Below are positions 6,730-39,215 of a DNA stretch of 42,428 nucleotides, piece by piece. The position numbers and the translations under genes were made by a program. A model generated the notes under the pieces. It had not been told where the DNA came from. It made no database searches and saw only the letters and a program-made list of their open reading frames with translations. The DNA is from Candidatus Krumholzibacteriia bacterium (GTDB lineage Bacteria > Krumholzibacteriota > Krumholzibacteriia > WVZY01). Every line of letters starts with the position of its first letter. The first letter of the stretch is position 1. The stretch spans positions 1 through 42,428 of the forward strand of contig JAZGDW010000017.1 of assembly GCA_036478295.1 (NCBI GenBank), in the 5' to 3' direction.

Positions 6730-6776
6730 CCACAATATCTAGTGCACGTTTCCTTTAGATCGACTATATTTTGGGG
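6730..6776. promoter_or_regulatory. Tandem NrdR boxes
   Basis: ccaCaAtATcTaGtgc (6730-6745) and cgaCtAtATtTtGggg (6761-6776) match acaCwAtATaTwGtgt, 31 bp apart, between the promoter and the nrdA start. Confidence 0.85.
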
Positions 6777-6806
6777 AAGATCCCTTCATCGTCCACAAGG
6801 AGAACC

Positions 6807-9590
6807 ATGGCCATTGAGAAAATAAAGAAGCGAAACGGCACCGTCGTCGAATTCAAACGCGACCTGATCGAACGGGCAATGGACAAAGCGTTTCGCGCGA
6901 GTGGCGTGGCGATTCAACACGAGATTCTCGAGACAATTACCGATGAAATCATCGAGATTCTCGAGAGCCGGTTCATCGAACGCATACCGGACGTCGAGGA
7001 CGTCCAGGATCTGGTCGAGAAGAAACTCGCGGACCACAGCTATTTCGCGGTGTCAAAGGTCTACATTCTCTACCGCCGTGAGCACCAGACGCTGCGCGAA
7101 GACCGCAGAAACGAAATCCTAGAAAAAATCGAAAGGCGCGATCTCAGCGTCCGAAAGCGCAGCGGTGACAGTGAGCGATTCGACGTACGGGACATCGAAG
7201 AGGCGATCGCCAACAGCTGCCGCGGCTTCGAGGGACAGGTGGACGTCGTCGGGATCATCCGCGACACCAAGCTCGCCGTCTTCGACGGGATCAGCACGCG
7301 CGAGATCAACCAGGCGATCATCATGGCGATGCGCGCGCGTATCGAGAAGGACCCGGCCTACTCGCTGGTGGCGGCGCGTTTTCTCTTCAACGATCTATAC
7401 AAGGACGTTATCGGCATCAACGAGTTCGACGACAACTTCGAAGAAATCTACAAACGATCCTTCAAGGAAAAGCTTCGTTACGGTGTCGAGGCCGGCCGCC
7501 TCGACCCTCGGCTGCTCGAGTTCGACCTCGATCGCATGTGCCAAGCGATAGCGCCGGAAAAAGACCGGCTGCTGCACTACCTTGGCGCCCAGGTTCTCTA
7601 CGACCGTTATTTCCTGAAGGATCTCGATCAGAAGATAATGGAAAACCCGCAGTACTTCTGGATGCGCGTGGCGATGGGACTGGCGCTCGGAGATAAGGAT
7701 CCTGAAGCGCGCGCCATTGATTTCTACGAAACGATCTCGTCGTTGCTCTATGTGCCCTCGACGCCGACCTTGTTTCACTCGGGAACGAAACACGCGCAGA
7801 TGAGCTCGTGCTACCTGACGACGGTCGAAGACGAATTGTCGCACATCATGAAAGCCATCTCGGATAACGCCCAGCTCTCCAAGTGGTCCGGCGGGCTCGG
7901 CAACGACTGGACGAACATCCGCGCGACCGGTTCGCTGATCAAGAGCACGAACGTGGGCAGCCAGGGCGTCGTGCCCTTCTTGAAGATAGTCGACGCCACC
8001 ACGGCGGCCATCAACCGCAGCGGCAAGCGCCGTGGTGCGACCTGCGTCTACCTGGAAACGTGGCACTACGATATCGAAGATTTTCTCGAACTGCGCAAGA
8101 ACACCGGCGACGAGAGGCGCAGAACCCACGACACCAACACGGCCAACTGGATTCCGGATCTTTTCATGAAGCGCGTGATGGACAAGGAGGAATGGACGCT
8201 CTTCTCGCCCGATGAGACACCGGACCTGCACCACTTGTACGGCAGGGCGTTCGATGAACGCTACCGGGAGTACGAGCGCATGGCCGCGGACGGCCACATC
8301 AGGCTCTTTCGCAAGATCGAAGCGCGGGAGCTGTGGCGCAAGATGATTACGATGCTCTACGAGACCGGCCACCCGTGGATCACGTTCAAGGACCCCAGCA
8401 ATATCCGCTCGCCCCAGGATCACGTGGGCGTCGTACACAGCTCGAACCTGTGCACCGAGATCACGCTGAACACGTCGGCGGAGGAAACGGCGGTCTGCAA
8501 CCTCGGTTCGATAAATCTCTCCCACCACGTAGACGGGGACCGGCTGGACACGGAGAAGCTCGCGGCGACCGTGGCGACTGCCATGCAAATGCTGGACAAC
8601 GTAATCGATCTGAATTTCTACCCGACCGAAGAGGCGCGAAACGCCAACCTGCGCCACCGCCCCGTCGGGCTCGGAGTGATGGGCGTGCAGGATACGCTCT
8701 ACAGGTTAGGTATGAGGTTCGACAGCGACGAGGCTATGGCATTCTCCGACCGCACCCAGGAGTTTATCTCGTACCACGCCATCCTCACTTCGTCGCGCCT
8801 GGCCGCGGAGAAGGGCACCTACGGGAGCTACAAAGGTTCCAAGTGGGACCGCGGTATTCTCCCCCTGGATACGATGGCGCTGCTCGAGGAGGAAAGAGGG
8901 ATCAAGACAGGGTTGGACCTGAGCCCCCGGATGGACTGGACTCCCGTGCGCGACCATGTCTCGCAGCACGGCATGCGCAACTCGAATTGCATGGCCATCG
9001 CTCCGACAGCGACCATCGCGAATATCGCGGGCTGTTTTCCTTCGGTCGAGCCCATCTACAAGAACATCTACGTCAAGTCCAACTTCAGCGGCGAGTTCAC
9101 CATCATCAACCGATACCTGGTCGACGATCTCAAGAAACTCGGCCTGTGGAACAACGAGATGAGCGAAAAACTCAAGTATTACGACGGCAGCGTTCAGAGC
9201 ATCGCCGAGATCCCCGAGTCTCTCAAATTGAAATACAAGGAAGTTTTCGAGATCGAACCCAAGAGTATCGTCATGCACGGCGCTCTGCGCGCAAAGTGGA
9301 TCGATCAGAGCCAGTCGATCAACATCTTTACGGCGAGCACCTCGGGCAAGTTCATCTCGGATATCTACCAGTACGCGTGGCGCATGGGACTGAAGACGAC
9401 GTACTACTTGAGGACCCTGGGAGCTTCGGGCATTGAAAAGAGCACCCTGGACGCGAGCAAGAAGTACGACGACGCCCTGCGCCCCGAGGACATTCCGGCG
9501 CTTCCAGACGCTCCGATCGAGGTGCCGGCAACTGCGGTCGTATCCTCGCAGTGTCTTATGGACGATCCGACGTGCGAAGCTTGTCAGTAA
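6807..9590 (+). CDS. nrdA: Class I ribonucleotide reductase alpha subunit with two N-terminal ATP cones (NrdAz-like)
   Basis: IKKRNG and VRKRSG ATP cones, PSTPTLFH, QMSSCYL, SSNLCTEI (thiyl Cys), AVCNLGS, IAPTATI, KTTYYLR, C-terminal CEACQ. ATG 6807 with AAGGAG. Confidence 0.97.
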   Translation: MAIEKIKKRNGTVVEFKRDLIERAMDKAFRASGVAIQHEILETITDEIIEILESRFIERIPDVEDVQDLVEKKLADHSYFAVSKVYILYRREHQTLREDRRNEILEKIERRDLSVRKRSGDSERFDVRDIEEAIANSCRGFEGQVDVVGIIRDTKLAVFDGISTREINQAIIMAMRARIEKDPAYSLVAARFLFNDLYKDVIGINEFDDNFEEIYKRSFKEKLRYGVEAGRLDPRLLEFDLDRMCQAIAPEKDRLLHYLGAQVLYDRYFLKDLDQKIMENPQYFWMRVAMGLALGDKDPEARAIDFYETISSLLYVPSTPTLFHSGTKHAQMSSCYLTTVEDELSHIMKAISDNAQLSKWSGGLGNDWTNIRATGSLIKSTNVGSQGVVPFLKIVDATTAAINRSGKRRGATCVYLETWHYDIEDFLELRKNTGDERRRTHDTNTANWIPDLFMKRVMDKEEWTLFSPDETPDLHHLYGRAFDERYREYERMAADGHIRLFRKIEARELWRKMITMLYETGHPWITFKDPSNIRSPQDHVGVVHSSNLCTEITLNTSAEETAVCNLGSINLSHHVDGDRLDTEKLAATVATAMQMLDNVIDLNFYPTEEARNANLRHRPVGLGVMGVQDTLYRLGMRFDSDEAMAFSDRTQEFISYHAILTSSRLAAEKGTYGSYKGSKWDRGILPLDTMALLEEERGIKTGLDLSPRMDWTPVRDHVSQHGMRNSNCMAIAPTATIANIAGCFPSVEPIYKNIYVKSNFSGEFTIINRYLVDDLKKLGLWNNEMSEKLKYYDGSVQSIAEIPESLKLKYKEVFEIEPKSIVMHGALRAKWIDQSQSINIFTASTSGKFISDIYQYAWRMGLKTTYYLRTLGASGIEKSTLDASKKYDDALRPEDIPALPDAPIEVPATAVVSSQCLMDDPTCEACQ

Positions 9591-9672
9591 CCCCGGTACG
9601 CTCCGGCAACCTGCGCGCGCACCCATTTGTTTTGTTTCCGAACACCCCTTATCGGGCAAAGAAAGGACATCC

Positions 9673-10689
9673 ATGGCCCCAGGACGAAATGAGAAAACGC
9701 TGATCAACTGCTCGTCGACCGATCCCAACAAGATTCTGCCCATGAAATACAAGTGGGCGCGCGACCACTACAAGACCGGTGTTGCCAACAACTGGACTCC
9801 CGAAGAAGTAAACATGCAAAAGGACGTGGAGATGTGGCGGAGTCCAACGGCGCTGACCGCGGATGAGAAGCGGCTCGTACTGTGGAACATGGGTTTCTTC
9901 TCGACGGCGGAGAGCTTGACGGCCAACAACATCGTGCTCGCCATCTACCGGCACATCACCAACCCGGAGTGTCGCCAGTACCTGCTGCGCCAGGGCTACG
10001 AGGAAGCGGTCCATACAGACACGTTCATCTACTGCTGCGACACGCTGGGTCTCGATCCCGAAGAAGTTTACAATATGTACCTCGACATTCCGAGCATTCG
10101 CAAGAAGGACGAGTTTGTCATCGAAATCACAAAGTCGATTCTCGACCCCGGCTTCACCACACAGGGCACCGAGAACGTGCAACGTTTCGTGCATGACCTG
10201 GTGGGGTACTACTTGATTATGGAAGGCATCTTTTTCTACGCGGGATTCGTCATGATGCTGTCCTTTCTGCGGCAGAACAAGATGGTTGGCGTCGGTGAAC
10301 AGTTCCAGTTTATCTTGCGCGATGAATCGGTCCACCTCACCTTCGGCACCGATCTAATCAACACCATCGTCCAGGAGAACCTCGACATCTGGACGGAGCC
10401 GTTCAAGGCCGAGATTACGAAGAACGTCGCCCGAGCGGTCGAGCTCGAGTACGATTACGCGAAGGACTGCCTGCCCAAGGGAATCCTCGGGCTCAACGCC
10501 GACGTTATCAACGAGTACATCCAGTACATCGCGGACCGCCGCCTGGAGAAGATCGGCCTGCCCAAGCTCTACGGCTCGAAGAATCCATTTCCGTGGATGA
10601 GCGAAGTGATTGATTTGCGCAAGGAAAAAAACTTCTTTGAAACGCGGGTAACCGAATACCAGTCCGGCATGCTCAACTGGGACGACTAG
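9673..10689 (+). CDS. nrdB: Ribonucleotide reductase beta subunit, class Ic (R2c)-type
   Basis: NNWTPEEV, FFSTAESL, EEAVHTDTF, MEGIFFYAGF, RDESVH, NPFPW, NFFETRVTEYQ. Start reassigned to ATG 9673 (AAAGGA). Confidence 0.95.
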   Translation: MAPGRNEKTLINCSSTDPNKILPMKYKWARDHYKTGVANNWTPEEVNMQKDVEMWRSPTALTADEKRLVLWNMGFFSTAESLTANNIVLAIYRHITNPECRQYLLRQGYEEAVHTDTFIYCCDTLGLDPEEVYNMYLDIPSIRKKDEFVIEITKSILDPGFTTQGTENVQRFVHDLVGYYLIMEGIFFYAGFVMMLSFLRQNKMVGVGEQFQFILRDESVHLTFGTDLINTIVQENLDIWTEPFKAEITKNVARAVELEYDYAKDCLPKGILGLNADVINEYIQYIADRRLEKIGLPKLYGSKNPFPWMSEVIDLRKEKNFFETRVTEYQSGMLNWDD

Positions 10690-24122: not shown

Positions 24123-24543
24123 TAAACCCCCGCGCGATGACGTGCCCCCATCCCGCCCGCAGCCCGCGGGCGCCGAACCGCCGAAAAACGACGCACCGGT
24201 GATTCTCTACGACGGCAGGTGTGATTTCTGCATTGCACAGGCGCGCCGCCTGCGGACGATCGCGCGTGGCACGGTGCGCCTCCGCTCATTCCACGACGAG
24301 GGTGTGCTGGCCGATTACCCCGGGCTCAGCAAAGAGGCGTGCATGAAGGAAATAAAACTCGTGGAACCCGGTGGCAGGATTTGCGGCGGGGCCGAAGCGG
24401 TCGTGCGCGCGATTCGCTGGGGCAACCCCATCCTGGGGGTGTTCGTGTGGGTTTACTATGTGCCGGGCGTCCGCCACGCAGCCGATCGCGTCTATCGCTG
24501 GGTGGCAGAAAACCGCCACCGGCGCGTTGCGCGCGGCGGTTAG
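24106..24543 (+). CDS. DCC1-like/DUF393 thiol-disulfide oxidoreductase
   Basis: ILYDGRCDFC (DxxCxxC), GAEAV, YRWVAENR. Start reassigned to ATG 24106 (GGAG 7 nt upstream). Confidence 0.85.
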   Translation: MPPRRNKPPRDDVPPSRPQPAGAEPPKNDAPVILYDGRCDFCIAQARRLRTIARGTVRLRSFHDEGVLADYPGLSKEACMKEIKLVEPGGRICGGAEAVVRAIRWGNPILGVFVWVYYVPGVRHAADRVYRWVAENRHRRVARGG

Positions 24544-25904
24544 CGTTGCAGCCGTATGTGAAATGACATGGTGCCCGTCGCGGTTCTTCGCGCCATGTCC
24601 GTTGCGCTGTAACTGTTGATCAGGTTGTCTTGCCCGAGAAACGTCACGAACTGTTCGAAGTTCTCCAGCGCGGGCAGGTCGCGACCCGTTATATTATAGA
24701 GGTGGGTTCGATCGTTCCACGGGGGCGGGTTATCAATAAAAATAGAATCTCCCTGCACGTCCGCAAGCGGGTAAACGGCTTCGTAGGTAAATGTGTCGCA
24801 CAAGGTCGAGATGGACACCCCGCCGACCCACGTGCCTGCCCTGCCGAACGGCTCCAGAAACCCCGGATCACTCTGCCTCGGAAAGGTATAGAACCAGCCG
24901 GCGACACCTGAGCCGTCCTCTTTGGGGTGGTCGTGTCCGGTCGCCTTTATCAGGAACCGAAATGTCTTCCTCCTGAAGAGTTCGGCGCCGATGACAACAA
25001 AATCGCTGTCGACCGGTGACCACCAGTCCCACACGATGGTTTCCGTGTCGTTGATCCGGGTACCGTCGTGGTTCTCCAGCCAGTAACTATCCAGGGTGGG
25101 ATCGAAGTTGCCGACGATCGCAAAGGAGGGCGGCGACGGGTCGGGCCCGCTGATGTTGGTCGTCCGTACGTGGACGACGTACTCGACCGAGCCGATGTTC
25201 ATCGACGTCGAATTAACCGTGCTGAACGGGTTGTCGTCTGCGGGATCGAAGGGCAGCCATGGGGACGCAAAGAACTTCGCACCCGGCGGAAAAAAACGAG
25301 AATCCCGCTCGTAGCGCAGCTGGTAGTCGAAACACCAGTTCACGGGGTCCGGACAAAGCAGCGGACTGTAGCCGCTGCCCTCATAAGTCACGGTAATCCA
25401 GCTACCGTAGGGGACGGTGTCGGGGATGCCGTCTGTGAAATCAATCGCCTCCTGCTGCGGCTGGCCGCCGATCATGTAGGTGTTCATGATAGTGGTGATC
25501 TGCGTACCCGCGATAAGACCCAGGGCGACCCTGAGCGCCGGTGACCACTGGGACTGGACCTGGGGGTGTATTTTGCAGCGCGCCTGGGCGGCAACGTCGC
25601 GCAGTCCGACGCCGATCCAGACCACGGTTACCGTGTCCGCGTCGCCCCACGGTGTGAGACTCCCCAACCCGGCCTGGTCGAGATCGAAGCGGTACTCGAT
25701 GGGATGGGCGAGGTTACTGGCCGCGCCCCCACTCGCATAGGTGACCGTATCCCCGTCGAGCACGGCACTCGTTCCCTGGGGTATCACCGGGACGCTGACG
25801 ATCTCGTTCGATGGTGGCGGGGGAGGCGGCAGCACGACGTTGTCCTCGCCACATGCGCCGATCAATACGGCCACGAGTACCGCTGCGAGAAACAATCGTC
25901 TCAT
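24540..25904 (-). CDS. Hypothetical lipoprotein with beta-rich domains
   Basis: MRRLFLAAVLVAVLIGA-C lipobox, poly-Pro linker, GGGGAG RBS; no recognised catalytic motif. Confidence 0.8.
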   Translation of the reverse strand: MRRLFLAAVLVAVLIGACGEDNVVLPPPPPPSNEIVSVPVIPQGTSAVLDGDTVTYASGGAASNLAHPIEYRFDLDQAGLGSLTPWGDADTVTVVWIGVGLRDVAAQARCKIHPQVQSQWSPALRVALGLIAGTQITTIMNTYMIGGQPQQEAIDFTDGIPDTVPYGSWITVTYEGSGYSPLLCPDPVNWCFDYQLRYERDSRFFPPGAKFFASPWLPFDPADDNPFSTVNSTSMNIGSVEYVVHVRTTNISGPDPSPPSFAIVGNFDPTLDSYWLENHDGTRINDTETIVWDWWSPVDSDFVVIGAELFRRKTFRFLIKATGHDHPKEDGSGVAGWFYTFPRQSDPGFLEPFGRAGTWVGGVSISTLCDTFTYEAVYPLADVQGDSIFIDNPPPWNDRTHLYNITGRDLPALENFEQFVTFLGQDNLINSYSATDMARRTATGTMSFHIRLQR

Positions 25905-26166: not shown

Positions 26167-26282
26167 CGCGAGTACGCCGGCGTAAGGTTGTGCAATCCCG
26201 GCCTGACGAGCGCTGGTGGGGGTGAGCGGCCGAGATTGCATAATTCATTTAAAATAGGTATTTTAAAAGGCCTGGGAGTGAA

Positions 26283-28682
26283 ATGAGCGAAGTTTCGAAA
26301 TGGCTCGAATGCGACGTACCGGCGGTCCTTCCCGTGCTGCTCCTCAAAAGCACGGTGCTCTTTCCCCTGCAGGTTGTGTCGGTCCAGATAGCGAAAAAGC
26401 CGAACTTGAGATTGCTCGAAGCGCACACCGGCCCCGATGAAATCGTCGGCGCGGGCGTATTCGTCGACCCCGAAGGAACGTATGTCAAAACAAATCTTGG
26501 ACCGGCGGCGGTCGCCTGCCGGGTGCTGAGCCGGATGAAGATGGGTCGTGGCATCACCCAGGTCGTGTTGCAGGGGCTTCGCCGCGTGGCGCTCACCGAG
26601 ATCGTCGCGTCCCGTCCTTATTTTATCTCGCGCGTGACCTGTGTCGACGCACAGGAGCGTGATAGCAAGGCCACGCGTGATCTCATCGCGCAGGTCATCC
26701 AGCTGGTCGAGAATCTGGTCGCGGTCGACGAGCGTTACACTGAGGAAATAGTCAAGGTGGTCCGGCTCAATGTCGAGAGCGGCTCACGCTGCGCGGACCT
26801 CGTCGCCAATATGGTGCAGCTCAGTTATGGCGACAAGCGGCGAGTGCTCGAGACGGCGGACGTTCCCGCGCGGCTGGCCCTGCTCGCCGATTTGCTGCGA
26901 CGCGAGATCGCCCGTGCCCGGATCGCCGGCGAGGTGCAGACGAAGGCCGAAGCTTCCATCGATCGCACGCAGCGAGAGGCCCTGCTCCGCGAGCAGTTGG
27001 AAATCGTCCGCCGCGAGTTGGACGAACTGGACCCTGCGGAGGCCGAGATCGCCCGTCTGGCCGCGTGTGTGGACGCCGCTGCGCTTCCTCCCCTGGTGGC
27101 CGAAGAGGCACACCGTGAGGTGCAGCGCCTGCACAGCGGGGCCGTCCGCGCCAGCGAGGGTTCCTCGATCCGGGCCTACATCGACTGGGTGCTCTCGATG
27201 CCCTGGGAGGCGGTGGCGCGGGAGCGCATCGACCTCCGCCGCGCCCGGAACATACTGGATAACCGCTACTTCGGTCTCGGCGACGCCCGTGACCGGCTGC
27301 TCGAGTTCCTCGCGGTGCGTAAGCTGCGGGGGAGCAACCGCCTGCCCCTGCTCGGCATCATGGGACCACCGGGCACCGGCCGGACGAGTCTCGCCCGCAC
27401 CGTGGCCGAGATACTCGGGCGGCCCCTGGTGCGCATTCCCATGCGCGGCATCCATGACGAGCAGGAGATTCAGGGATATCCGCGTACCGATGCCACAGCG
27501 CGACCGGGCCACATTCTCGACGGCCTGCGCAAGGTGGGTGTACGCAACCCGGTGATCCTGATCGACGAGATCGAACGCCTCGAGCCCTGGGAGGGCGAGC
27601 CGATGCTGGCGTTGTTGGAAGCGCTCGATCCTGCACGCAACACCCACTTTCGCGACTACTACCTGGGGGTGCCGTTCGATCTCTCACCGGTCCTCTTCAT
27701 CATTACCGGAAATATTCCGGAGGAGATTCCCAATACGCTCCTGGAATTCGTCTATATCATCGAGTTGGCGGGCTACACCGAGCGCGTCAAGCTGGCCATC
27801 ACCAAGGAATACATCTGGCCGCAGGTCGTCGAGGACCACGGTCTTACCCGAGCGAAGGTGCGCATAACCAGCGCCGCACTCCGGCGGATCATCAGCAACT
27901 ACACGCGTGAGGCGGGAGTGCGCGAGCTGACGAAGAGGCTGCAGGCGGTCTGCCGGCGGGCCGCGGTGAAAGTGGCGACCAACAAACACCGCCGCCTCTC
28001 CATCGACGTGCGAAGCCTCGAAGGCTACCTCGGTAAACCCATCTACACGGACGACCAGCTGGGCCGTGGGCCGCAGGTCGGCACCGCGACCGGGCTGGCG
28101 TGGACCGAGTCGGGCGGCGTGCTACTGCCGGTCGAGGCGCTGCTCATGCCGGGCGCCGGCTACACCACGGTGACTGGGTTACTCGGAGAGGTGATGGAAG
28201 AATCCGTCGAGGCGGCCATTTCCTACGTGCGCTCGCGCGCCGAGGAACTCAAGATTCCGGCGGACGTCTTCAAGAAAATGGACCTGCACGTCCATTTCCC
28301 CGAGGGGGCCATCCCCAAGGACGGTCCCTCGGCGGGCATCGCCGCGGTGACCACCATTGCCTCGCTGGCCTCCGGCCGTCCGGTACGCGACGACGTCGCC
28401 ATGACCGGGGAGATTTCGCTGCAGGGCCGCGTGCTTCCCGTGGGCGGCATTCGTGAGAAAGTGCTCGCCGCCTACCGGGCCGGTCTCCGGCACGTCATCC
28501 TGCCCAGGGGCAATGAGAGCGACCTGGACGAGGTGCCCCGCGAGGTGCGCGCGAAGATGCGCTTTCACCTAGTGGACGAAGTGGCCGAAGTCCTGCGCAT
28601 TGCCCTGCTGAAGAAGAGCGCGACGGCCCGGTCCGGCGCAGCCGTCCGGGCCAGAACTGGCGCGAGGGCGAGGCGGCGTTGA
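26283..28682 (+). CDS. lon: Lon (endopeptidase La) homologue with degenerate AAA+ module and intact Ser-Lys dyad
   Basis: LON N-domain, [84 protein letters not shown]. Confidence 0.92.
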
Positions 28683-28724: not shown

Positions 28725-29645
28725 GTGCCCGTTGACAAGAGGGACATCTGCATCATCGGTGTGCCCATCGACCTCGGGGCCGGTCGTCGCGGCGTCGACA
28801 TGGGACCCTCGGCCATCCGCATCGCCGATATCGAACCGCGCCTCGAAGCACTCGGTTTCACGATCGAAGACTGCGGTGACCTGGACATCGCCATCCCTGA
28901 GCTTCAACGGGTGGGCCAGGGCAACTTGCGTTTCAAAGATTCGATTCTTGCCACGTGCCACCAGGTGATGGACGCCGTGCGCGGTGGCCTCGAGCAGGGC
29001 CGCTTTCCGCTGGTTCTCGGCGGTGATCACAGTCTCGCCATTGGCTCGATTGCGGGCTCGTCCGGTTATTTCGCGGAAAAGGACGAGGAGATCGGTGTCA
29101 TCTGGTTCGACGCCCACGGTGACTTCAACACCCCGCAGACCACCCCCTCGGGTAACATCCACGGTATGTCGCTGGCCGTCTCCGTAGGCCTGGGCGATGG
29201 CGATCTCGTTGGCCTCGGCGGCCGATCACCGAAGGTCAACCCGGAGAAGACGGTTATTATCGGCTTGCGTGACCTGGACGACCGGGAGAAGGAGAATATC
29301 CGGAGTGCCGGCGTCACCGTGTACACGATGAGGGATCTCGACGAGCGCGGCCTGCGGCGTGTGTTTGACGACGCCATCAAAACCGCCGGTGACGGCACTG
29401 CGGGGATTCACCTGTCGTTCGATCTCGACGTCATCGATCCCCAGGTGGCCCCGGGCACCGGAACGCCGGTTCGCGGCGGCGTATCCTACCGCGAAGCCCA
29501 CCTCGCCATGGAGATGCTCGGCGACCATGCGAACGTCGTTTCCATGGACATGGTCGAGGTCAACCCCGTCCTCGATATCCAGAATCAGACGGCGCTCCTC
29601 GGCGTCGAACTCGTACTGAGTTTGATGGGGAAACGGATCCTGTAA
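28725..29645 (+). CDS. rocF: Arginase
   Basis: GAGRRGVDMGPSAIR, GGDHS, WFDAHGDFNT, SGNIHGM, SFDLD, APGTGTPV, EVNP. Confidence 0.95.
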   Translation: MPVDKRDICIIGVPIDLGAGRRGVDMGPSAIRIADIEPRLEALGFTIEDCGDLDIAIPELQRVGQGNLRFKDSILATCHQVMDAVRGGLEQGRFPLVLGGDHSLAIGSIAGSSGYFAEKDEEIGVIWFDAHGDFNTPQTTPSGNIHGMSLAVSVGLGDGDLVGLGGRSPKVNPEKTVIIGLRDLDDREKENIRSAGVTVYTMRDLDERGLRRVFDDAIKTAGDGTAGIHLSFDLDVIDPQVAPGTGTPVRGGVSYREAHLAMEMLGDHANVVSMDMVEVNPVLDIQNQTALLGVELVLSLMGKRIL

Positions 29646-30308: not shown

Positions 30309-30421
30309 CATTTCTGGCAAAATCGGTCCGTTGACCTACAGGCGCCCGCTCGATCATCGGTGCGCGCCGGCACGAATCAAAAATTTTCGAACTGCGGTTG
30401 AACGCGAGGACTCCTGGCGGC

Positions 30422-33352
30422 ATGATCGGCAAGACGGTCTCCCACTACAAGATCATCGAGAGAATAGGTGCGGGCGGAATGGGTGAGGTGTATCTGGCCG
30501 AGGATACCGAGCTGCGGCGCAGGGTCGCGTTGAAGTTCCTGCCACCCGGCTACTCGACCGCACCCGATGTCCTCACTCGCTTCAAGCGCGAGGCACGCGC
30601 CGCCGCCGCCCTCAACCATCCCAACATCATCACCATTCACGAGGTAGCCATGCACGGGGACCGCCCCTATATCGTTATGGCCTACGTCGAGGGTGAGTCA
30701 CTGAGCGAGCAAATTCGTTCCAAATCCCTGTCACTGCCGACCGTTATCGATATTGCCATCCAGATCGGTGAAGGGCTGTCCAAGGCCCACCAGGCGGACG
30801 TCGTTCACCGCGATCTCAAACCGGACAATATCGTCATCGACGAAGACGGCCGGGCCAAGATACTGGATTTCGGTCTGGCGAAGCTAAGGGGCGCCACGAA
30901 GCTTACCGACGAGGCATCGACTCTTGGGACTGTCTTCTACATGTCACCCGAACAGACAAGAGGCGAAGATGTCGGTCCCCGCTCCGATCTTTTCTCGCTC
31001 GGCACGGTGCTCTACGAGATGATAACCGGCCAGCTGCCGTTCGGCGGCGAACACATGGCAGCTGTTATGTACGCGATCACGACGGAGGAACCGCAGCCGC
31101 TAAGGCGTTTCAACAACGATGTCACACCCGGCCTGGAACGAATTGTCTTCAAGATGCTGGCCAAGGATCCCGGGGAGCGTTACCAAACCGCCGCGGACCT
31201 GGTCGCGGATCTCAAACACGAACGGAAACTCTCGCAACTGAACGCGTCCACAGCGCGCCGCCGATCTGGCCCTCGTAAACGAGGACCACGCACTCTCAAG
31301 ATCGCTATCCCCTCATCGCTATTGTTCATCGCCATTCTACTCGTGTTGATACTCAAACCGTTTCGCGTTGAAATAGCGCCGGACCGGCAGGCGGAGGCTT
31401 CTGAAAACATGCTCGCTGTAATGTACTTCGAGAACCTCGCCGATCGCGGCGACGAAAAACGTCTGGGGGAGATCATCACCAGCTTGCTGATCACCGACCT
31501 CTCGGCCTCGGATGCTCTCCGCGTGGTCTCCAGCCAGCGCCTCTATGACATATTGAAGGGACTCGATAAGGAGGGCACCAGGAACATCGATCGCAACACG
31601 GCGACGCTCGTCGCGAACAGGGCGGGCGCACAGTGGATGCTCCTCGGCAACATTCTCCAGGCAGAACCTACCCTGGTTGTAACATACCAGCTCGTCGACG
31701 TGGCCAGCGGGGACGTGAAGGACTCCCAACGCGTCGACGGCGCGAGTGGGGAATCAATCTTCTCTCTCGTGGATCGGATGACCGTCGAGCTAAGGAACGA
31801 ACTCTCGCTCACGCTTGCCACGCGTGGTGATATCGACAGGCCGGTTGCGGAGATCACGACAAGCTCGCCCGATGCCTACCGTCATTATCTCGAGGGAATG
31901 GAGCACCTCAATAAGAACTACAAGGAGGAAGCGATCGAGAGCTTCAGGAAGGCCATCGAAATCGACAGCACACTCGCGATGGCACACCTGGAGTTGGCCG
32001 TTCCAAACCTGCCGCTTTCGTTCGCGGAGAAACAGCGACACGTCAAGTTGGCACGGCGCTACTCCACCAAGGTCAGCGAGCGTGACCGCCACTTCATAAA
32101 TTCACTTTACGCGATCTATTTTGGAAGAACTTCAGAGTCCATCAGGGAATTGCACGCTGTCATCGCGAAACATCCTGATGACAAGCGAGCGTACTACGGT
32201 TTATCGGTTATCCACTGGATTGTACTGTCAAAACGTGACCAGGCACTGACCTATGCCAGAAAAGCCATCGAATTAGACCCGCTCTACAAGCTTGCCTACA
32301 ACCGGCTCGCTTACATCTACATCGACCTCGGCGAATATGAAAAGGCTCTGGAGGCGGTCGACACGTACATCGCACTGGGTCCGGACGAGCCCAACCCGTA
32401 CGATACCCAGGCAGAGGTGTATGGGCTCCTTGGCAGGCTCGACGACGCGATAAACGGCTACAAGAAAGCCATCGAGATCAAGCCCGATTTCGGAATTGCC
32501 GCAGTTAGCCTGGGAAACATGTATCTTTTTCGACAGGACTATGCGACCGCGGAAGCGTACTACCGACAATATCTCAGCCACCAAACAGCCGACCTGCGGG
32601 CGGCAGCGCGGCATGCGCTGAGTCGTGTACCTTTGCATCAGGGAAAGTTCGAAAATACCCTGGCGATGCTGGATCGTTACATCGCCGCTGATGAAGCGGA
32701 CCCGTACGGAGGCGAGTACAGCGGCGAGTTCCGTGCGGACAAGTATTGGTCGAAGGCGCTCGTATACACGCAGTTGGGCGATTATCGAAAGGCAATCGCA
32801 GCAGGCCAAAAAGCGCTCGAGATAGAACGCACGAGTGGTCGGGGCGGATCGTGGCGTACCCTGGTGGAGTTGCACGCCCGCAGCAAGGATTTTGCGGCCG
32901 CTGAGACGCTCTTGAGCTCGACGACCCTCGACACCACCCGCTGGAGCGGAGAGGACAGGGCAGAATTCTATTACTCGCACGGAATTATCGAATTCGAAAA
33001 AGGCTCTTACGCCGCGGCGTGTGACCATTTTGAGCGGGCGGTGTTCGACGATCCTGAGTTCTACACGCAGTATGCCCTGGCGGTGGCATACTTGAAGGCC
33101 AACCGGCTGACAGAGGCCGTGCGGGCCTTCGAGAGAATCCTGAACGAGTACTCAAGGCAACGCGCCGATGACCCGATCAATTCCGTACTCGTCTACTACT
33201 ACGCCGGTTTGGCCTATCAAGACTCGGGAATGAACGTCAAGGCTGTCGCGCAGTTTGAGAGATTTCTCGATATCTGGAAAGACGCCGATCCGGGTATCGA
33301 GGAGATGGCAGATGCCCGTCGCCGCCTGGATTCTCTCAAGGGCGGGACCTAG
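30422..33352 (+). CDS. Hanks-type Ser/Thr protein kinase with TM helix, TolB-N-like domain and TPR repeats
   Basis: IGAGGMGEVY, VALK, HRDLKPDN, DFG, YMSPEQ, DLFSLG; TM IAIPSSLLFIAILLVLIL; LAVMYFEN; multiple TPRs. Confidence 0.95.
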   Translation: MIGKTVSHYKIIERIGAGGMGEVYLAEDTELRRRVALKFLPPGYSTAPDVLTRFKREARAAAALNHPNIITIHEVAMHGDRPYIVMAYVEGESLSEQIRSKSLSLPTVIDIAIQIGEGLSKAHQADVVHRDLKPDNIVIDEDGRAKILDFGLAKLRGATKLTDEASTLGTVFYMSPEQTRGEDVGPRSDLFSLGTVLYEMITGQLPFGGEHMAAVMYAITTEEPQPLRRFNNDVTPGLERIVFKMLAKDPGERYQTAADLVADLKHERKLSQLNASTARRRSGPRKRGPRTLKIAIPSSLLFIAILLVLILKPFRVEIAPDRQAEASENMLAVMYFENLADRGDEKRLGEIITSLLITDLSASDALRVVSSQRLYDILKGLDKEGTRNIDRNTATLVANRAGAQWMLLGNILQAEPTLVVTYQLVDVASGDVKDSQRVDGASGESIFSLVDRMTVELRNELSLTLATRGDIDRPVAEITTSSPDAYRHYLEGMEHLNKNYKEEAIESFRKAIEIDSTLAMAHLELAVPNLPLSFAEKQRHVKLARRYSTKVSERDRHFINSLYAIYFGRTSESIRELHAVIAKHPDDKRAYYGLSVIHWIVLSKRDQALTYARKAIELDPLYKLAYNRLAYIYIDLGEYEKALEAVDTYIALGPDEPNPYDTQAEVYGLLGRLDDAINGYKKAIEIKPDFGIAAVSLGNMYLFRQDYATAEAYYRQYLSHQTADLRAAARHALSRVPLHQGKFENTLAMLDRYIAADEADPYGGEYSGEFRADKYWSKALVYTQLGDYRKAIAAGQKALEIERTSGRGGSWRTLVELHARSKDFAAAETLLSSTTLDTTRWSGEDRAEFYYSHGIIEFEKGSYAAACDHFERAVFDDPEFYTQYALAVAYLKANRLTEAVRAFERILNEYSRQRADDPINSVLVYYYAGLAYQDSGMNVKAVAQFERFLDIWKDADPGIEEMADARRRLDSLKGGT

Positions 33353-34489: not shown

Positions 34490-34525
34490 TGAACGATGGT
34501 TAGAATTTTGAACGATGGTTTGAAT
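34489..34525. promoter_or_regulatory. Tandem 18-bp operator repeat overlapping the transcription and translation start
   Basis: TTGAACGATGGTTAGAAT (34489-34506) and TTGAACGATGGTTTGAAT (34508-34525), 17/18 identical, each with an AAC-N4-GTT dyad. Confidence 0.75.
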
Positions 34526-35152
34526 GAGCGCCTCGAGCGGCGTGCCCTGACCCGGCGGCTGGAGATCCTGCGGGCGGCCGGGAGGACGTTTCGCCGGCTT
34601 GGGTTCGTCGATGCGGGAATGCGTGAGATTGCAATGGAGGCCGACCTCTCCCCGGGTAATCTCTACTACTACTTCACCGGCAAAGATGAGATTCTGTTTT
34701 TCTGCCAGGATCGCTCGCTGGACGCGATGCTGGAATCGCTCGCGGCCGCAACGCGATGCGCGGAGTCGTCCGCAGAGAAACTGCACCGCGTGGTGATCGC
34801 ACATCTTCGTGTCCTGCTGGACGAGCTCGAGGGTTCCACAGCGCACCTGGAGATCAATTCCCTGCCCGCCGAGCTGCGTGAGAAGCTGGTGGAGAAACGT
34901 GACCGCTACGAGCGCGGCATCCGCCGTTTGATCTCGACGGGGGTTCGCGGCGGTGAGTTCGCGCCGTGTGACCCCAAGCTGGTGACCCGCGCCATCCTGG
35001 GCGCGCTCAACTGGACGGCACTATGGTACCGGTCCGACGGAACCCGCTCGGTGACCTCCGTTGCCGGGTCGTTCGCAAGTTACCTCGTTCGCGGGTTGGT
35101 CGCCGAAACGCCAATGGATCGTTCGAAGACGCGCCGTGGAGGTTCCGAGTGA
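34496..35152 (+). CDS. TetR family regulator (KstR2/PaaR-like C-terminal domain)
   Basis: ILRAAGRTFRRLGF...MREIA.EA.LSPGNLYYYF.GKDEIL; ILGALNWTALWYR.DG. Confidence 0.93.
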   Translation: MVRILNDGLNERLERRALTRRLEILRAAGRTFRRLGFVDAGMREIAMEADLSPGNLYYYFTGKDEILFFCQDRSLDAMLESLAAATRCAESSAEKLHRVVIAHLRVLLDELEGSTAHLEINSLPAELREKLVEKRDRYERGIRRLISTGVRGGEFAPCDPKLVTRAILGALNWTALWYRSDGTRSVTSVAGSFASYLVRGLVAETPMDRSKTRRGGSE

Positions 35153-35670
35153 AAAAAATCGAAGGAAAAACGAAAGCCCACATGACCGTGACCATCAACG
35201 ACGAGGCGGCAGAGGTTTCGTTCGCCCCGTACAAGACCCTGCTCGAGGTGCTGCGCGAAGACATGGGATTGATGGGCACCAAGCATGGCTGCGAACTGGG
35301 CGAGTGCGGAGCCTGCGCGGTGTTACTGGACGGGGAGCCGGTGCTCTCCTGCCTCATTCTGGGTGTCGAGTGTGACGGTCGCGACATAACAACGGTCGAG
35401 GGCTTGCAGCGGGATGGCCGCCTGCATCCGTTGCAGGAAGCGTTCGCAGACCTCGGCGGTGCGCAGTGTGGTTACTGCACGCCGGCCATACTGGTCACCG
35501 CGAAAGCACTGCTGGAAAAAGTTGCCAACCCCAGCCGGGAACAAATCCGCGAGGCGTTGTCCGGTGTGCTTTGCCGCTGTACGGGCTACCAACAGATATT
35601 CGAATCGGTGGAGGAGGCGATGGTGAGAATGAAAAGCGGAAGCGCTCAACCCGAGGAGGCGAAGCGATGA
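35149..35670 (+). CDS. hcrC: 2x[2Fe-2S] subunit of a xanthine-oxidase-family enzyme (HcrC-like)
   Basis: GTKHGCELGECGAC...SC, QCGYCTP, CRCTGY; GTGA overlap with tetR and GGAGG RBS. Confidence 0.88.
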   Translation: MKKIEGKTKAHMTVTINDEAAEVSFAPYKTLLEVLREDMGLMGTKHGCELGECGACAVLLDGEPVLSCLILGVECDGRDITTVEGLQRDGRLHPLQEAFADLGGAQCGYCTPAILVTAKALLEKVANPSREQIREALSGVLCRCTGYQQIFESVEEAMVRMKSGSAQPEEAKR

Positions 35671-38129
35671 GCGCCGACTCCAGGAAGTTTTCGGTGATCG
35701 GTGTGCCCCGGCGCCGCGTGGACGGGCGCGCGAAGGTCACCGGGCAGACGCGCTTCGCGGACGACGTGGTGCTGCCGCGCATGCTGTACTGCAAACTCCT
35801 GCGCTCACCTCACCCCCACGCGCGGATCAAGAACATCGACACGTCCCGGGCGCGCGCGCATGAGGGTGTGCACCTCGTCCTGACCGGCGCTGACCTGCCC
35901 ATCGAGTTCGGCATTCTGCCCGTGAGCCAGGACGAGCAGCCGCTGTGCTCGGACGTGGTGCGTTATGTCGGCGACCCGGTCGCGGCCGTCATCGCCAAGG
36001 ACGAGTTGACCGCTTTCGATGCGTTGCATCTGATCGATGTCCAGTACGAGGTCTTGCGCACCTACTCCGAGCCACAGGAGAGTCTGGATCACCCCGAACC
36101 GCGAATCCAGGACTACGGAGAAGAGGGCAACATTCACAAACGCGTGTCGTTCTCGTTCGGTGACGCCGAGGCGGGGTTTGACGAGGCAGACGAAATCTTC
36201 GAAGACATGTTCTTCTATGAGGGCAACACGCATCTCGCCATCGAGCAGCACGCCTCTGTTGCTGCGGTCGACCCGGATGGCAAGCTGACACTTTGGTCGA
36301 GCACTCAGACGCCACACTATGTCCACCGCGCCCTCGCCCAGGTGCTCGAGATACCCGCCGCGCACATCCGGGTGATCGCCTGCCCCAACGGAGGGGGATT
36401 TGGCGGCAAGAGCGACATCTTCAACCACGAGATGGTCGTGGCCAGGGCGGCGCTGGTGCTGGATCGCCCGGTCAAGATCTGCCTGACGCGCGAGGAGGTG
36501 TTCTACGCCCACCGGGGCCGCCACCCGGTGCTCATGCGATTCAAGACGGGCACGAAGAAAGACGGAACCATCACCGGCATGAAGCTCGACACACTGGTCG
36601 ACGGCGGCGCCTACGGGTCGTACGGTGTGGCCAGCGTGCTCTACACCGGTGCGCTGCAGACCGTTACCTACCACATCCCGCGCTACCAGTTTCAAGGGTG
36701 CCGTGTCTTCACCAACAAGCCGCCGTGCGGCCCCAAACGGGGCCACGGCACCCCGCAGCCACGTTTCGGCCAGGAGATCCAGCTCGACCGCATCGCCGAG
36801 CGACTGGCGATCGACCCGGCCGAGCTGCGCCTGAAGATCGTGGAGAAACCGAACTCGCTGACCGCCAACTACCTGCGCATCGGAACCATCGGCCTGGGCA
36901 AGTGCATCCAGAGCGTCGTGAAGCACAGCGGCTGGAAAGACAAGTATCGAAAGCTGCCCCAAGGAAAAGGCGTCGGCCTGGCGTGCGGGTCCTACTTGAC
37001 CGGCGCGGGACTGGCGATCTACTGGAACAAGATGCCGCACTCGGGCGTGCAGCTGCGCCTGGACCGAAGCGGCGAAGTCACAGTTTTCTGCGGTGCCATC
37101 GAGATCGGTCAGGGCTCCGACGATGTGCTGGTGGGTGTGGTGGCGGAAGTGCTCGGCATTGACCCGCACGACGTGCGCTGCGTGACCGGTGATACGGCCT
37201 TGACGCCGGTCGACCTCGGCTCGTACAGCAGCCGCGTCACTCTCATGATGGGGAATGCCGCGATCCAGGCTGCCGAGCGCGCAAAGGATTTGGTGGGGTC
37301 GGCGGTGGCCGCCGAGCTCGACGTTTCACAATCGAACTTGGTTTTTGCCGGGAGACGCGTGTTCGACGGCCGGGATCCCAAAAAGGGCATGGACTGGCGC
37401 AACGCGGTGTGCCTCGCCGAGGCCCGCCACGGAACGCTGGGCACGGTCGGCTCCTATACGCCGCCGAAGTCCGCGGCCCGTTTTGGGGGCGGTGGTGTCG
37501 GACCGTCACCGGCGTACTCCTACACCGCAGCAGTGGTCGAGGTGGAGGTGGACTCCGTGACCGGCTGGATTGGCGTACCCCGGGTCTGGATTGCACACGA
37601 CATCGGCCGCGCGCTGAACCCCGTGCTGGTTCGAGGACAGGTCGAAGGCAGTGTGTACATGGGTTTGGGCGAAGCGTTGATGGAGGAACAGGCGTACCGC
37701 CGCCTGCCGGCCAAACACTCGAACGCCCTCGTGCACAAGTTCCCCTCGATCCTCGAATACAAGAGCCCGACGAGCCACGACATGCCGGAAGTCATCACCG
37801 AGCTGATCGAGGATCCGGACCCGGCGGGTCCGTTCGGGGCGAAAGAGGTGGGACAGGGACCGCTACTCCCCATTATGCCCGCGGTCGCTAACGCGGTGTA
37901 CGATGCGATCGGCGTACGCATCGACGAAGTGCCAATCACGCCCGACAAGATCGTCAAGGCGCTGGACGATAAGGCTCGTGGCGGACCCGGCCGCTACGGT
38001 CCGAACGTGTTCCCCGACATCGATTGGCCGGAACCGCTGCAGGTTCCGCCGCCATGGGAAGGCGGCGACGGAAAGGCGATCAACAAGCCGGAGCGCAAGC
38101 GCGCCGCCAAGCTCGCCAGGGGATCCTGA
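35667..38129 (+). CDS. hcrA: Molybdopterin-binding subunit, 4-hydroxybenzoyl-CoA reductase alpha-like
   Basis: RSPHPHARI, STQTPHY, GGGFGGK, KRGHG, EIGQGS, GSYSSRVT, GQVEG, GPFGAKEVGQG; ATGA overlap with hcrC. Confidence 0.8.
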   Translation: MSADSRKFSVIGVPRRRVDGRAKVTGQTRFADDVVLPRMLYCKLLRSPHPHARIKNIDTSRARAHEGVHLVLTGADLPIEFGILPVSQDEQPLCSDVVRYVGDPVAAVIAKDELTAFDALHLIDVQYEVLRTYSEPQESLDHPEPRIQDYGEEGNIHKRVSFSFGDAEAGFDEADEIFEDMFFYEGNTHLAIEQHASVAAVDPDGKLTLWSSTQTPHYVHRALAQVLEIPAAHIRVIACPNGGGFGGKSDIFNHEMVVARAALVLDRPVKICLTREEVFYAHRGRHPVLMRFKTGTKKDGTITGMKLDTLVDGGAYGSYGVASVLYTGALQTVTYHIPRYQFQGCRVFTNKPPCGPKRGHGTPQPRFGQEIQLDRIAERLAIDPAELRLKIVEKPNSLTANYLRIGTIGLGKCIQSVVKHSGWKDKYRKLPQGKGVGLACGSYLTGAGLAIYWNKMPHSGVQLRLDRSGEVTVFCGAIEIGQGSDDVLVGVVAEVLGIDPHDVRCVTGDTALTPVDLGSYSSRVTLMMGNAAIQAAERAKDLVGSAVAAELDVSQSNLVFAGRRVFDGRDPKKGMDWRNAVCLAEARHGTLGTVGSYTPPKSAARFGGGGVGPSPAYSYTAAVVEVEVDSVTGWIGVPRVWIAHDIGRALNPVLVRGQVEGSVYMGLGEALMEEQAYRRLPAKHSNALVHKFPSILEYKSPTSHDMPEVITELIEDPDPAGPFGAKEVGQGPLLPIMPAVANAVYDAIGVRIDEVPITPDKIVKALDDKARGGPGRYGPNVFPDIDWPEPLQVPPPWEGGDGKAINKPERKRAAKLARGS

Positions 38130-38180
38130 CGACGCACGATCGGCACGGCACGCAAAGATTATGAGCGAGGTGACCGAACC

Positions 38181-39215
38181 ATGATGAGACTCCCCTACTT
38201 TCGCTACCGTGCTCCGCGCACGGTGTCCGAGGCTGCGAAGATCCTCGCCGCCGAGGGACCCGAGGCAATGCTGCTCGCGGGCGGTACCGACCTGCTGCCC
38301 AACATGAAACGCCGGCAGCAGGTGCCAGGAACGCTCGTCGGTTTGCGCAGTATTGATGCATTGCGCTCCATTGCAAACGGATCGGGCTTGCGTATTGGAG
38401 CGGGTCTCACGTTGAGCCAGCTCGCGGCCGATGCCCGCGTGCGCGAGCAGTATACCGGTCTGTTCCAGGCAGCGATCCAGGTGGCCACGCCTCACCTGCG
38501 AAACATGGCCACCCTCGGTGGAAACATCTGCCTCGACACCCGGTGCAACTACTACGACCAGAACTACGAGTGGCGCAAGGCGATCGACTTCTGTATGAAA
38601 AAGGATGGGGACATCTGTTGGGTGGCGACGGGGAGCAAGCGTTGCCTGGCCGTCTCGTCCACGGACACCGCGCCCGCCCTGATGTCGCTGGGAGCGAGAG
38701 TGCGTTTGGTCTCGGATGGAGGCGACCGGCTGGTGTCACTTGGCGATTTGTACCGGAACGATGGTATCGACTACATCACGCGCCGACCCGACGAGATTGT
38801 GACCGAGGTTGTGCTCGACCCCCCCGGCGGATGGAAGAGCACGTACTGGAAGCTGCGTCGTCGCGGGTCGTTCGACTTTCCGGTGCTTGCGGCCGCCGTG
38901 GCGGTCAAGTTCGCAAAAGGCGGTGTCGTCGAAGATGCGCGGATCGTGCTGGGAGCGGTTGCGTCCTGTCCCGTTGACTGCCCCGACGCGGCGCAAGGGT
39001 TGGCGGGAAAAAAACTGACGGACGCCGTAATCGAGGAAGCGGCTACAGTTGCCTCGAAGAAGGCCAAGCCGGTGGACAACACGGACTTCACCCTGTCCTG
39101 GCGCAAGCGCGTCGCCCGTGCGTTCGTGACCTACGCGCTCTGCGAGGTCCGCGGCGATGACATGCGTGAGCAGCGGATCAAGGTGGCCCGGCACTCGCTC
39201 GACGCCGCGGTCTGA
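38181..39215 (+). CDS. hcrB: FAD/[4Fe-4S] subunit, 4-hydroxybenzoyl-CoA reductase beta-like
   Basis: AGGTDL, RNMATLGGN, HcrB-type Cys insertion RCNYY...FCMKKDGDICWV...KRC, RGSFDFP. Confidence 0.85.
   Translation: MMRLPYFRYRAPRTVSEAAKILAAEGPEAMLLAGGTDLLPNMKRRQQVPGTLVGLRSIDALRSIANGSGLRIGAGLTLSQLAADARVREQYTGLFQAAIQVATPHLRNMATLGGNICLDTRCNYYDQNYEWRKAIDFCMKKDGDICWVATGSKRCLAVSSTDTAPALMSLGARVRLVSDGGDRLVSLGDLYRNDGIDYITRRPDEIVTEVVLDPPGGWKSTYWKLRRRGSFDFPVLAAAVAVKFAKGGVVEDARIVLGAVASCPVDCPDAAQGLAGKKLTDAVIEEAATVASKKAKPVDNTDFTLSWRKRVARAFVTYALCEVRGDDMREQRIKVARHSLDAAV

Follow-up and report, generated by a model that had tools for sequence, protein, structure and literature searches.

The window analyzed here, a stretch of 42,428 nucleotides from a Candidatus Krumholzibacteriia genome (contig JAZGDW010000017.1), carries the gene for a full-length Lon protease, P0001, with a degenerate ATPase motor and a preserved protease domain. 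P0001 is a conserved member of the LonA subfamily whose motor is, judged from its residues, very likely dead. We propose, with about as much confidence as doubt, that it assembles by itself and degrades peptides and already unfolded chains independently of ATP. The degenerate motor with a preserved protease, first described in an earlier note on this DNA, was borne out by motor lesions, an invariant catalytic dyad and low dN/dS in the clade to which P0001 belongs.

P0001 has the build of LonA and several motor lesions

The reading frame of P0001 extends over 799 amino acids without an internal stop (Table 1), in agreement with the earlier claim of a full-length Lon with a preserved frame. The protein scored 711.5 bits against the LonA profile TIGR00763 (curated cut-off 608.05), and the Pfam domains PF02190, PF00004, PF22667, and PF05362, corresponding to the N-terminal domain, AAA+ module, and protease domain, were found in one chain. 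LonA chains were the best Foldseek match of its AlphaFold2 model (mean pLDDT 80.9), and P0001 is ~38% identical to solved LonA chains. The pTM of the full-length model was 0.42, and the arrangement of the domains was therefore left uninterpreted. A complex prediction for two copies of residues 311 to 778 scored 0.00 and was used neither way.

Equivalent residues were assigned by alignment with Escherichia coli Lon (6u5z) and Meiothermus taiwanensis LonA (MtaLon, 8k3y). The three substitutions on which the earlier note was built were all recovered: the Walker A Lys is replaced by R367, aligned on K362 of E. coli Lon, the RTYIG pore loop reads RTDAT with D403 on the pore-loop Tyr, and the DRME arginine finger reads EFVY with F489 on R484. 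The Walker B sequence DEIER was likewise as described. Two changes were absent from that note, namely, the replacement of the entry-gate Tyr by A233 and a pore loop 2 that is one residue short. Of the parts expected in a functional ATP-dependent LonA, P0001 thus has neither the Walker A Lys (R367) nor the finger Arg (F489) nor an aromatic residue in pore loop 1 (D403). P0001 retains Walker B D428 and E429, sensor-1 N477, and sensor-2 R547, but the clade as a whole does not.

The protease domain aligned without gaps to both of these reference Lons, and its Ser-Lys dyad is intact, as had been claimed. P682 precedes the catalytic S683 and 42 residues lie between Ser and Lys, both of which are given as hallmarks of LonA (PMC9569914).

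TABLE 1 Features of the gene for P0001, in positions of the window
Feature	Position	Strand	Detail	Basis
Full-length motor-degenerate LonA gene	26283..28682	+	799 aa, P0001	Open reading frame, no internal stop
LonA N-terminal substrate-binding domain	26325..26903	+	aa 15-207	Pfam PF02190
Entry-gate position (MtaLon Y224)	26979..26981	+	A233	Alignment to 8k3y
P-loop GPPGTGRTS	27363..27389	+	From aa 361; R367 (27381-27383) replaces Walker A Lys	Alignment
Pore loop 1 RTDAT	27483..27497	+	D403 on pore-loop Tyr; aromatic grip residue gone	Alignment
Walker B DEIER	27564..27578	+	Glu retained in P0001	Alignment
Arginine finger position (R484)	27747..27749	+	F489, in EFVY motif 27744-27755	Alignment
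Sensor-2 Arg	27921..27923	+	R547, retained in P0001	Column analysis
Lon protease domain	28065..28616	+	aa 595-778	Pfam and alignment
Catalytic Ser	28329	+	S683	Gap-free protease alignment
Catalytic Lys	28458	+	K726	Gap-free protease alignment
Basic C-terminal tail, low confidence	28617..28679	+		pLDDT <50

The P0001 clade and its distribution

Two protein searches returned a set of full-length or nearly full-length relatives that scored 1045 to 1426 bits with the clade profile, with the next canonical Lons at ≤887 bits. Clustering at 50% identity placed the whole set together, with a gap of 395 bits to the following cluster. The sample of 48 sequences used below (47 proteins and locus L030) was picked for similarity to P0001 in percent identity and for motifs that were visibly altered; the near-copy P0029 and the loci L001, L031, and L032, which duplicate listed proteins, were left out. 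The 38 full-length sequences formed one branch in an 86-row tree (SH-aLRT 100), the other 10, fragments and close relatives, being outside the tree. Identities in the clade span 47 to 90%, and full length is kept across this span, apart from a small number of cluster members that are fragmentary or whose gene is split within one contig.

Named members are labelled Candidatus Krumholzibacteria (P0009), Gemmatimonadota (L001), and Planctomycetota (clusters of P0122, P0127, and P0129), all automatically annotated as ATP-dependent Lon or endopeptidase La. The gene was present in 4 of 13 genomes of the source's own family and was not found in the other 195 genomes searched of its phylum (4/208 in total, with four candidates scored per genome), nor in a genome of the same genus (G001). 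One member was found among 401 genomes of the phylum of G208 (two candidates scored per genome), a second match there (G545) being canonical. Since few candidates were scored per genome, misses are possible in these phylum-wide searches. A scan of genome contigs gave one clade member (L001) in 28 loci, the other 27 being Deinococcus Lons. A scan with the clade alignment, whose patterns were unspecific, gave none among 80 metagenome loci, which were reused as comparison Lons. No plasmid record exceeded 60% identity among 125 matches.

The closest genome-borne relative of P0001 is the Gemmatimonadota-labelled L001 (74% identity, dS 0.8 to 1.0), and the copies from its own family are more distant (63 to 68%, dS 1.2 to 1.8). 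The sister group of the clade was formed by Gemmatimonadota Lons in one tree and by the pore-loop-less P0472 and P0530 in another, and no donor is therefore claimed.

Motor residues are lost and protease residues kept across the clade

Eight motor elements were scored in the 48 clade sequences and in 94 nonredundant comparison Lons (from 267). All clade sequences lacked three to seven of the eight, in differing combinations, compared to none lacking in 93 of the 94 comparison Lons. No clade sequence kept more than three of the five residues of ATPase chemistry. Position 367 was always basic, with Arg in 38/48 and Lys in 10/48, and the three P-loop glycines were invariant; in all 10 members with the Walker A Lys, the finger and the Glu of Walker B were missing together. 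The Walker B Glu was kept in 16/48, with Asp in 27/48, and was likely regained from Asp in the crown group that holds P0001, because Glu is confined to that group. Sensor 1 was kept in 30/48, the sensor-2 Arg in 19/48, the arginine finger in 9/48, and the pore-loop-1 aromatic residue in 1/48. The entry-gate Tyr or Phe was present in none of 45 clade sequences versus 85 of 94 comparison Lons, and pore loop 2 was below canonical length in 46/48.

The protease domain presented the opposite picture. S683 and K726 were kept in 47/47, and the equivalents of E613 and L708, which form the protease-ring interface of MtaLon (PMC10643698), were invariant (E618 in 48/48 and L713 in 47/47). Positions conserved in ≥95% of the comparison Lons were mostly retained by the clade in the protease domain (38 of 43) but not in the AAA alpha/beta domain (23 of 61; Fisher P = 2e-7, with sites and sequences not independent of each other). 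The conservation of the dyad shows selection on catalysis and is silent on the oligomer in which catalysis takes place.

The Arg-rich C-terminal tail pointed out in the earlier note is real in P0001 but not unique, tails with ≥30% Lys or Arg occurring in 39 of 47 clade sequences and in 20 of 94 comparison Lons; it was rejected as a clade-defining trait.

The regularity of some substitutions raises the question of a rewired ATPase site, in which R367, R452, and R328 would allow slow hydrolysis or let another phosphorylated ligand act as an allosteric switch. The invariably basic position 367 would suit this reading, as would a Gln-to-Arg change at 452 in 45/48, within a loop that contacts the nucleotide of the neighbor in MtaLon (PMC8503904), an Asp-to-Arg change at 328 in 44/48, and the retention of D428, E429, N477, and R547 in P0001. 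We nevertheless consider it highly doubtful, the Walker B Glu being absent in 32/48, sensor 2 in 29/48, and sensor 1 in 18/48, with 4, 12, and 7 state changes on the tree, respectively. Hydrolysis could moreover not drive threading without the pore aromatic residue, and the same Lys-to-Arg change abolished the ATPase activity of human LonP1 (bioRxiv 2021.07.28.454137).

Selection acts on all domains

The dN/dS values were 0.07 to 0.24 in every domain (Nei-Gojobori, three regions, dS near saturation), with 0.16 to 0.20 in the N-domain. At short range, 15 synonymous versus 5 and 6 nonsynonymous codon changes were counted in the AAA core, over ~115 synonymous and 323 nonsynonymous sites. Across the same four genomes, the protease domain of the clade copy was 79% identical, compared to 74% and 82% in two canonical paralogues; the corresponding values were 72% versus 89% for the AAA alpha/beta domain and 64% versus 90 to 94% for the long helix. 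Since it evolves faster than in canonical Lons and its dN/dS is still low, the AAA+ module appears to be relaxed for catalysis yet selected as a structure.

On these data, it is very improbable, and largely refuted, that the gene is a duplicate in decay with relaxed selection or a product of misassembly. The patchy occurrence in the family, with no copy found in the same-genus genome, and the faster evolution of the AAA domain would be expected of decay, unlike the full length and invariant dyad over the whole identity span and the dN/dS values, which lie far below 1 for distant and close comparisons alike. The Walker A and pore-loop codons showed no amino-acid change in contigs of the runs X1 and X8 (from different studies, ~95% identical), nor did the finger codon, covered by X8 only. 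With these independent contigs keeping the residues and 47 further clade sequences having degenerate motors, an artefact was rejected. The orthologues thus share degenerate motors under purifying selection, and the case that had been named as fatal to the earlier claim, substitutions unique to one genome with relaxed selection, is excluded by the clade and its low dN/dS.

Selection on the N-domain, in which S23, Q30, S33, N41, N71, R84, and R186 are conserved residues specific to the clade (column analysis), would also be expected if P0001 were mainly an ATP-independent holdase or aggregate-binding chaperone, or a nucleic-acid binder, acting through its N-domain and basic surfaces with the peptidase secondary. 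The median pI of 8.2 in the clade versus 6.1 in the comparison Lons is consistent with such a role. LonP1, including K529R and a hexamer of the N-domain only, is reported to suppress aggregation without ATPase activity (bioRxiv 2026.05.06.723147), and LonC is described with dual chaperone and protease forms (PMC13069640). The protease domain, however, is the best conserved part of the protein and would not be needed for a mainly noncatalytic role, and no chaperone or heat-shock gene was linked to the clade gene in the five loci compared. We regard this explanation as quite unlikely.

Gene neighborhood and canonical Lons of the carrier genomes

No conserved neighbors of the clade gene were found among the five loci, and linkage to another lon gene was found in 0/5. 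Because the closest genome-borne relative of P0001 carries the label of another phylum and common neighbors are missing in 5/5 loci, the gene seems to travel alone between genomes; a mis-binned contig could mimic part of this pattern. In the window, an arginase gene (TIGR01229, above cut-off; 28725-29645, + strand) follows 42 bases after the lon gene but is absent at the other four loci, and a lon-arginase operon as a family trait was rejected. An AT-rich segment ending 15 bases before the lon start contains an inverted repeat (26248-26267) with perfect 9-bp arms separated by 2 bases, a possible operator; it is present in a single copy in the genome and was not seen upstream of four orthologues, and a promoter scan gave nothing above chance.

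Other genes of the window include a 454-amino-acid open reading frame divergent from the lon gene with no Pfam or NCBIfam match (24540-25904, - strand), a 984-amino-acid Ser/Thr kinase with TPR repeats (30398-33352, + strand), and the alpha and beta subunits of a class Ia ribonucleotide reductase (6771-10689, + strand), the beta frame having ~85 residues before the profile match. At 34496-39215 (+ strand), a TetR-family regulator is followed by molybdenum and FAD subunits of the xanthine dehydrogenase family, whose best matches, below cut-off, were 4-hydroxybenzoyl-CoA reductase alpha and beta.

The source genome also encodes two canonical Lons (contigs C202 and C71; 38% and 35% identical to P0001), the latter beside a frame that is presumably clpX. 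A canonical Lon was present in all five carrier genomes examined (two copies each in G000, G004, and G008, three in G007, and one split over two contigs in G208), and those of G004, G007, G008, and G208 had canonical motifs in the sequence shown. This co-occurrence, which weakens the case for a stand-alone role of P0001, makes mixed rings conceivable, in which P0001 would modulate a canonical Lon by dampening its motor while adding protease sites. The invariant interface residues E618 and L713 would permit them, and pentamers of MtaLon are reported to accept a sixth subunit, with engineered or monomeric subunits inhibiting Lon in vitro and in cells (PMC10643698).

Several observations make this explanation unlikely. 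The co-occurrence is uninformative because a Lon match was found in 60 of 61 relatives. P0001 is only 35 to 38% identical to the co-resident Lons, and its gene lies apart from other lon genes at all five loci and is spread over several phyla. The invariant dyad would be superfluous in a pure inhibitor. Without finger and pore aromatic residue, P0001 could help a neighbor neither in hydrolysis nor in pulling. R484 is reported to act in trans on the gamma-phosphate of the neighboring subunit (PMC8503904), and a cooperative mixed hexamer becomes less likely because this trans-acting finger and the pore loop are gone.

A Zixibacteria family with the opposite pattern

A cooperating noncatalytic AAA+ subunit would be expected to keep its trans-acting arginine finger and pore loop and to lose its catalytic residues in cis. 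This signature is missing from the P0001 clade and was found in a second, larger family of degenerate LonA. One comparison sequence from the metagenome loci, L069 (6893-9451), was degenerate in a different way from the P0001 clade, and a search with it gave at least 120 matches (90%-identity clusters P0286 to P0405), the named members being nearly all Zixibacteria or GN15. Among the matches listed, the Walker A Lys was kept in 119/120, the finger in 118/120, and the pore aromatic residue in 117/120, with Ala for the Walker A Thr (120/120), ED for the Walker B DE (119/120), Arg for sensor 1 (120/120), a sensor-2 Arg in 0/120, and the dyad in 116/117. Its residues suggest that this family, the reverse of the P0001 clade, would be dead in cis and competent in trans, and it fits better as a candidate noncatalytic subunit of mixed Lon rings.

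The earlier note had offered two roles for P0001, an ATP-independent peptidase or a regulatory subunit of mixed hexamers. On the conservation pattern, the peptidase appears the better fit, and the cooperating subunit fits less well.

Degenerate LonA proteins were also found beyond these two families. Of the best 150 LonA clusters at 50% identity, the 136 below 950 amino acids were examined, the 14 above that length being set aside. No lesion was seen in 121 of them, and in at least 11 the dyad was intact although three or more motor elements were lost; both families are among these 11 and are favored by the query. Mis-annotation is hence not confined to one lineage. Deep clusters in which two to six motor elements were lost and the dyad was intact were P0408, P0425, P0428, P0429, P0434, P0456, P0460, P0471, P0487, and P0520; among the further deep degenerate clusters, one is named Zixibacteria and one Eisenbacteria. 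P0472, P0530, and P0420 had lost the pore-loop aromatic residue and kept most residues of ATPase chemistry, the first two adjoining the P0001 clade in one tree. A further group of Lon-related proteins of 1200 to 1400 amino acids (P0002, P0004, P0024, P0026, P0030 to P0034, and P0038) gave a high AAA-region score at low identity, which suggests repeated AAA modules, and was left out of the alignments.

Degenerate sequences required three changes on a 46-row tree, at least two of them forced by its starred branches, with deep placements unsure owing to long branches. A common origin of the P0001 clade and the Zixibacteria family was neither supported nor rejected (AU P = 0.165). Tentatively, and with more doubt than confidence, Krumholzibacteriota, Zixibacteria, Eisenbacteria, Gemmatimonadota, and Planctomycetota may harbor an unrecognised radiation of motor-dead, catalytically intact LonA of two kinds, a pore-less and finger-less ATP-free protease in which proteolysis would be uncoupled from translocation, and the Zixibacteria family as a noncatalytic subunit of Lon heterohexamers.

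A proposed LonA protease without a working motor

As an ATP-independent protease, P0001 would neither hydrolyze ATP nor thread substrates. Its AAA+ module would have a scaffolding role and, like that of LonC, would still be able to bind phosphate or nucleotide in the P-loop, and the AAA+ ring might act as a phosphate sensor. Subunits would oligomerize via the protease ring, substrates would diffuse to the active sites through the de-gated, aromatic-free pore or a lateral gap, and the N-domain would offer a capture or holdase surface. The gene would pass between phyla by itself, providing an accessory protease for quality control at no energy cost.

In favor of this reading, K529R, the same Walker A change, is reported to abolish the ATPase activity of human LonP1 (bioRxiv 2021.07.28.454137), and LonP1 without ATP to cleave peptides but not casein (bioRxiv 2026.06.23.733973). 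The main weakness is that single lesions of this kind already prevent canonical Lons from dealing with casein. K529R is reported to abolish casein proteolysis as well (bioRxiv 2021.07.28.454137); in MtaLon, Y224S or Y397A abolished casein binding and Y224S left mostly open spirals (PMC10643698). P0001 may accordingly be restricted to peptides, or may need compensating changes to degrade more than these. The purifying selection on the AAA core and the Walker B DE and sensors 1 and 2 kept by P0001 also speak against an ATP-independent protease.

The engineered LonP1 K529R and MtaLon Y224S, Y397A, and dN-E613K carry lesions at positions naturally changed in the P0001 clade. They are single lesions in a canonical background, unlike the clade, in which several are fixed together under selection with the interface Glu kept.

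P0001 shares with the LonA proteins of E. coli and M. taiwanensis its domain order, length, Pro-Ser motif, and predicted fold and differs in the missing Walker A Lys, pore-loop Tyr, arginine finger, and entry-gate Tyr; across the clade, losses of sensor 1, sensor 2, and the Glu of Walker B are frequent too. In function, the nearest likeness is LonC (MEROPS S16.007; MtaLonC), which combines a degenerate AAA+ module with a retained P-loop and an intact protease domain; it is reported to bind phosphate or nucleotide at the P-loop and to degrade unfolded proteins without ATP (PMC3391209 and PMC13069640). The clade has a LonC-like P-loop, with GxxGxG[RK] invariant while the hydrolysis residues vary. 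LonC, however, is described as related to LonB, with a helical-hairpin extension, a protease domain that contains insertions, and an Asp preceding the catalytic Ser, and without a LonA N-domain (PMC3391209, PMC13069640, and PMC9569914). P0001 has the LonA N-domain, no AAA+ insertion relative to LonA, Pro682, and the gap-free protease alignment. P0001 is thus not a LonC but likely works like one, and since it is LonA-built, the likeness would be convergent. The Pseudomonas protease AsrA, compared by description only, is a second LonA beside a canonical one with substrate preferences of its own and is described as ATP dependent, unlike P0001 (bioRxiv 2026.09.03.749167). No description of a motor-dead LonA subfamily was found in the open-access literature searched, where LonC, LonBA, and AsrA were found; a mention in a comparative table or supplement is possible.

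LonA is the standard example of a protease driven by an ATP motor. If the proposed role is true, P0001 would show that Lon proteolysis became ATP-free twice independently, once in LonC and once in a LonA. Its clade would offer a test of what activates the LonA protease ring without threading and of the role of the N-domain without a motor, and with the Zixibacteria family the formation of mixed Lon rings could be tested in a natural system.
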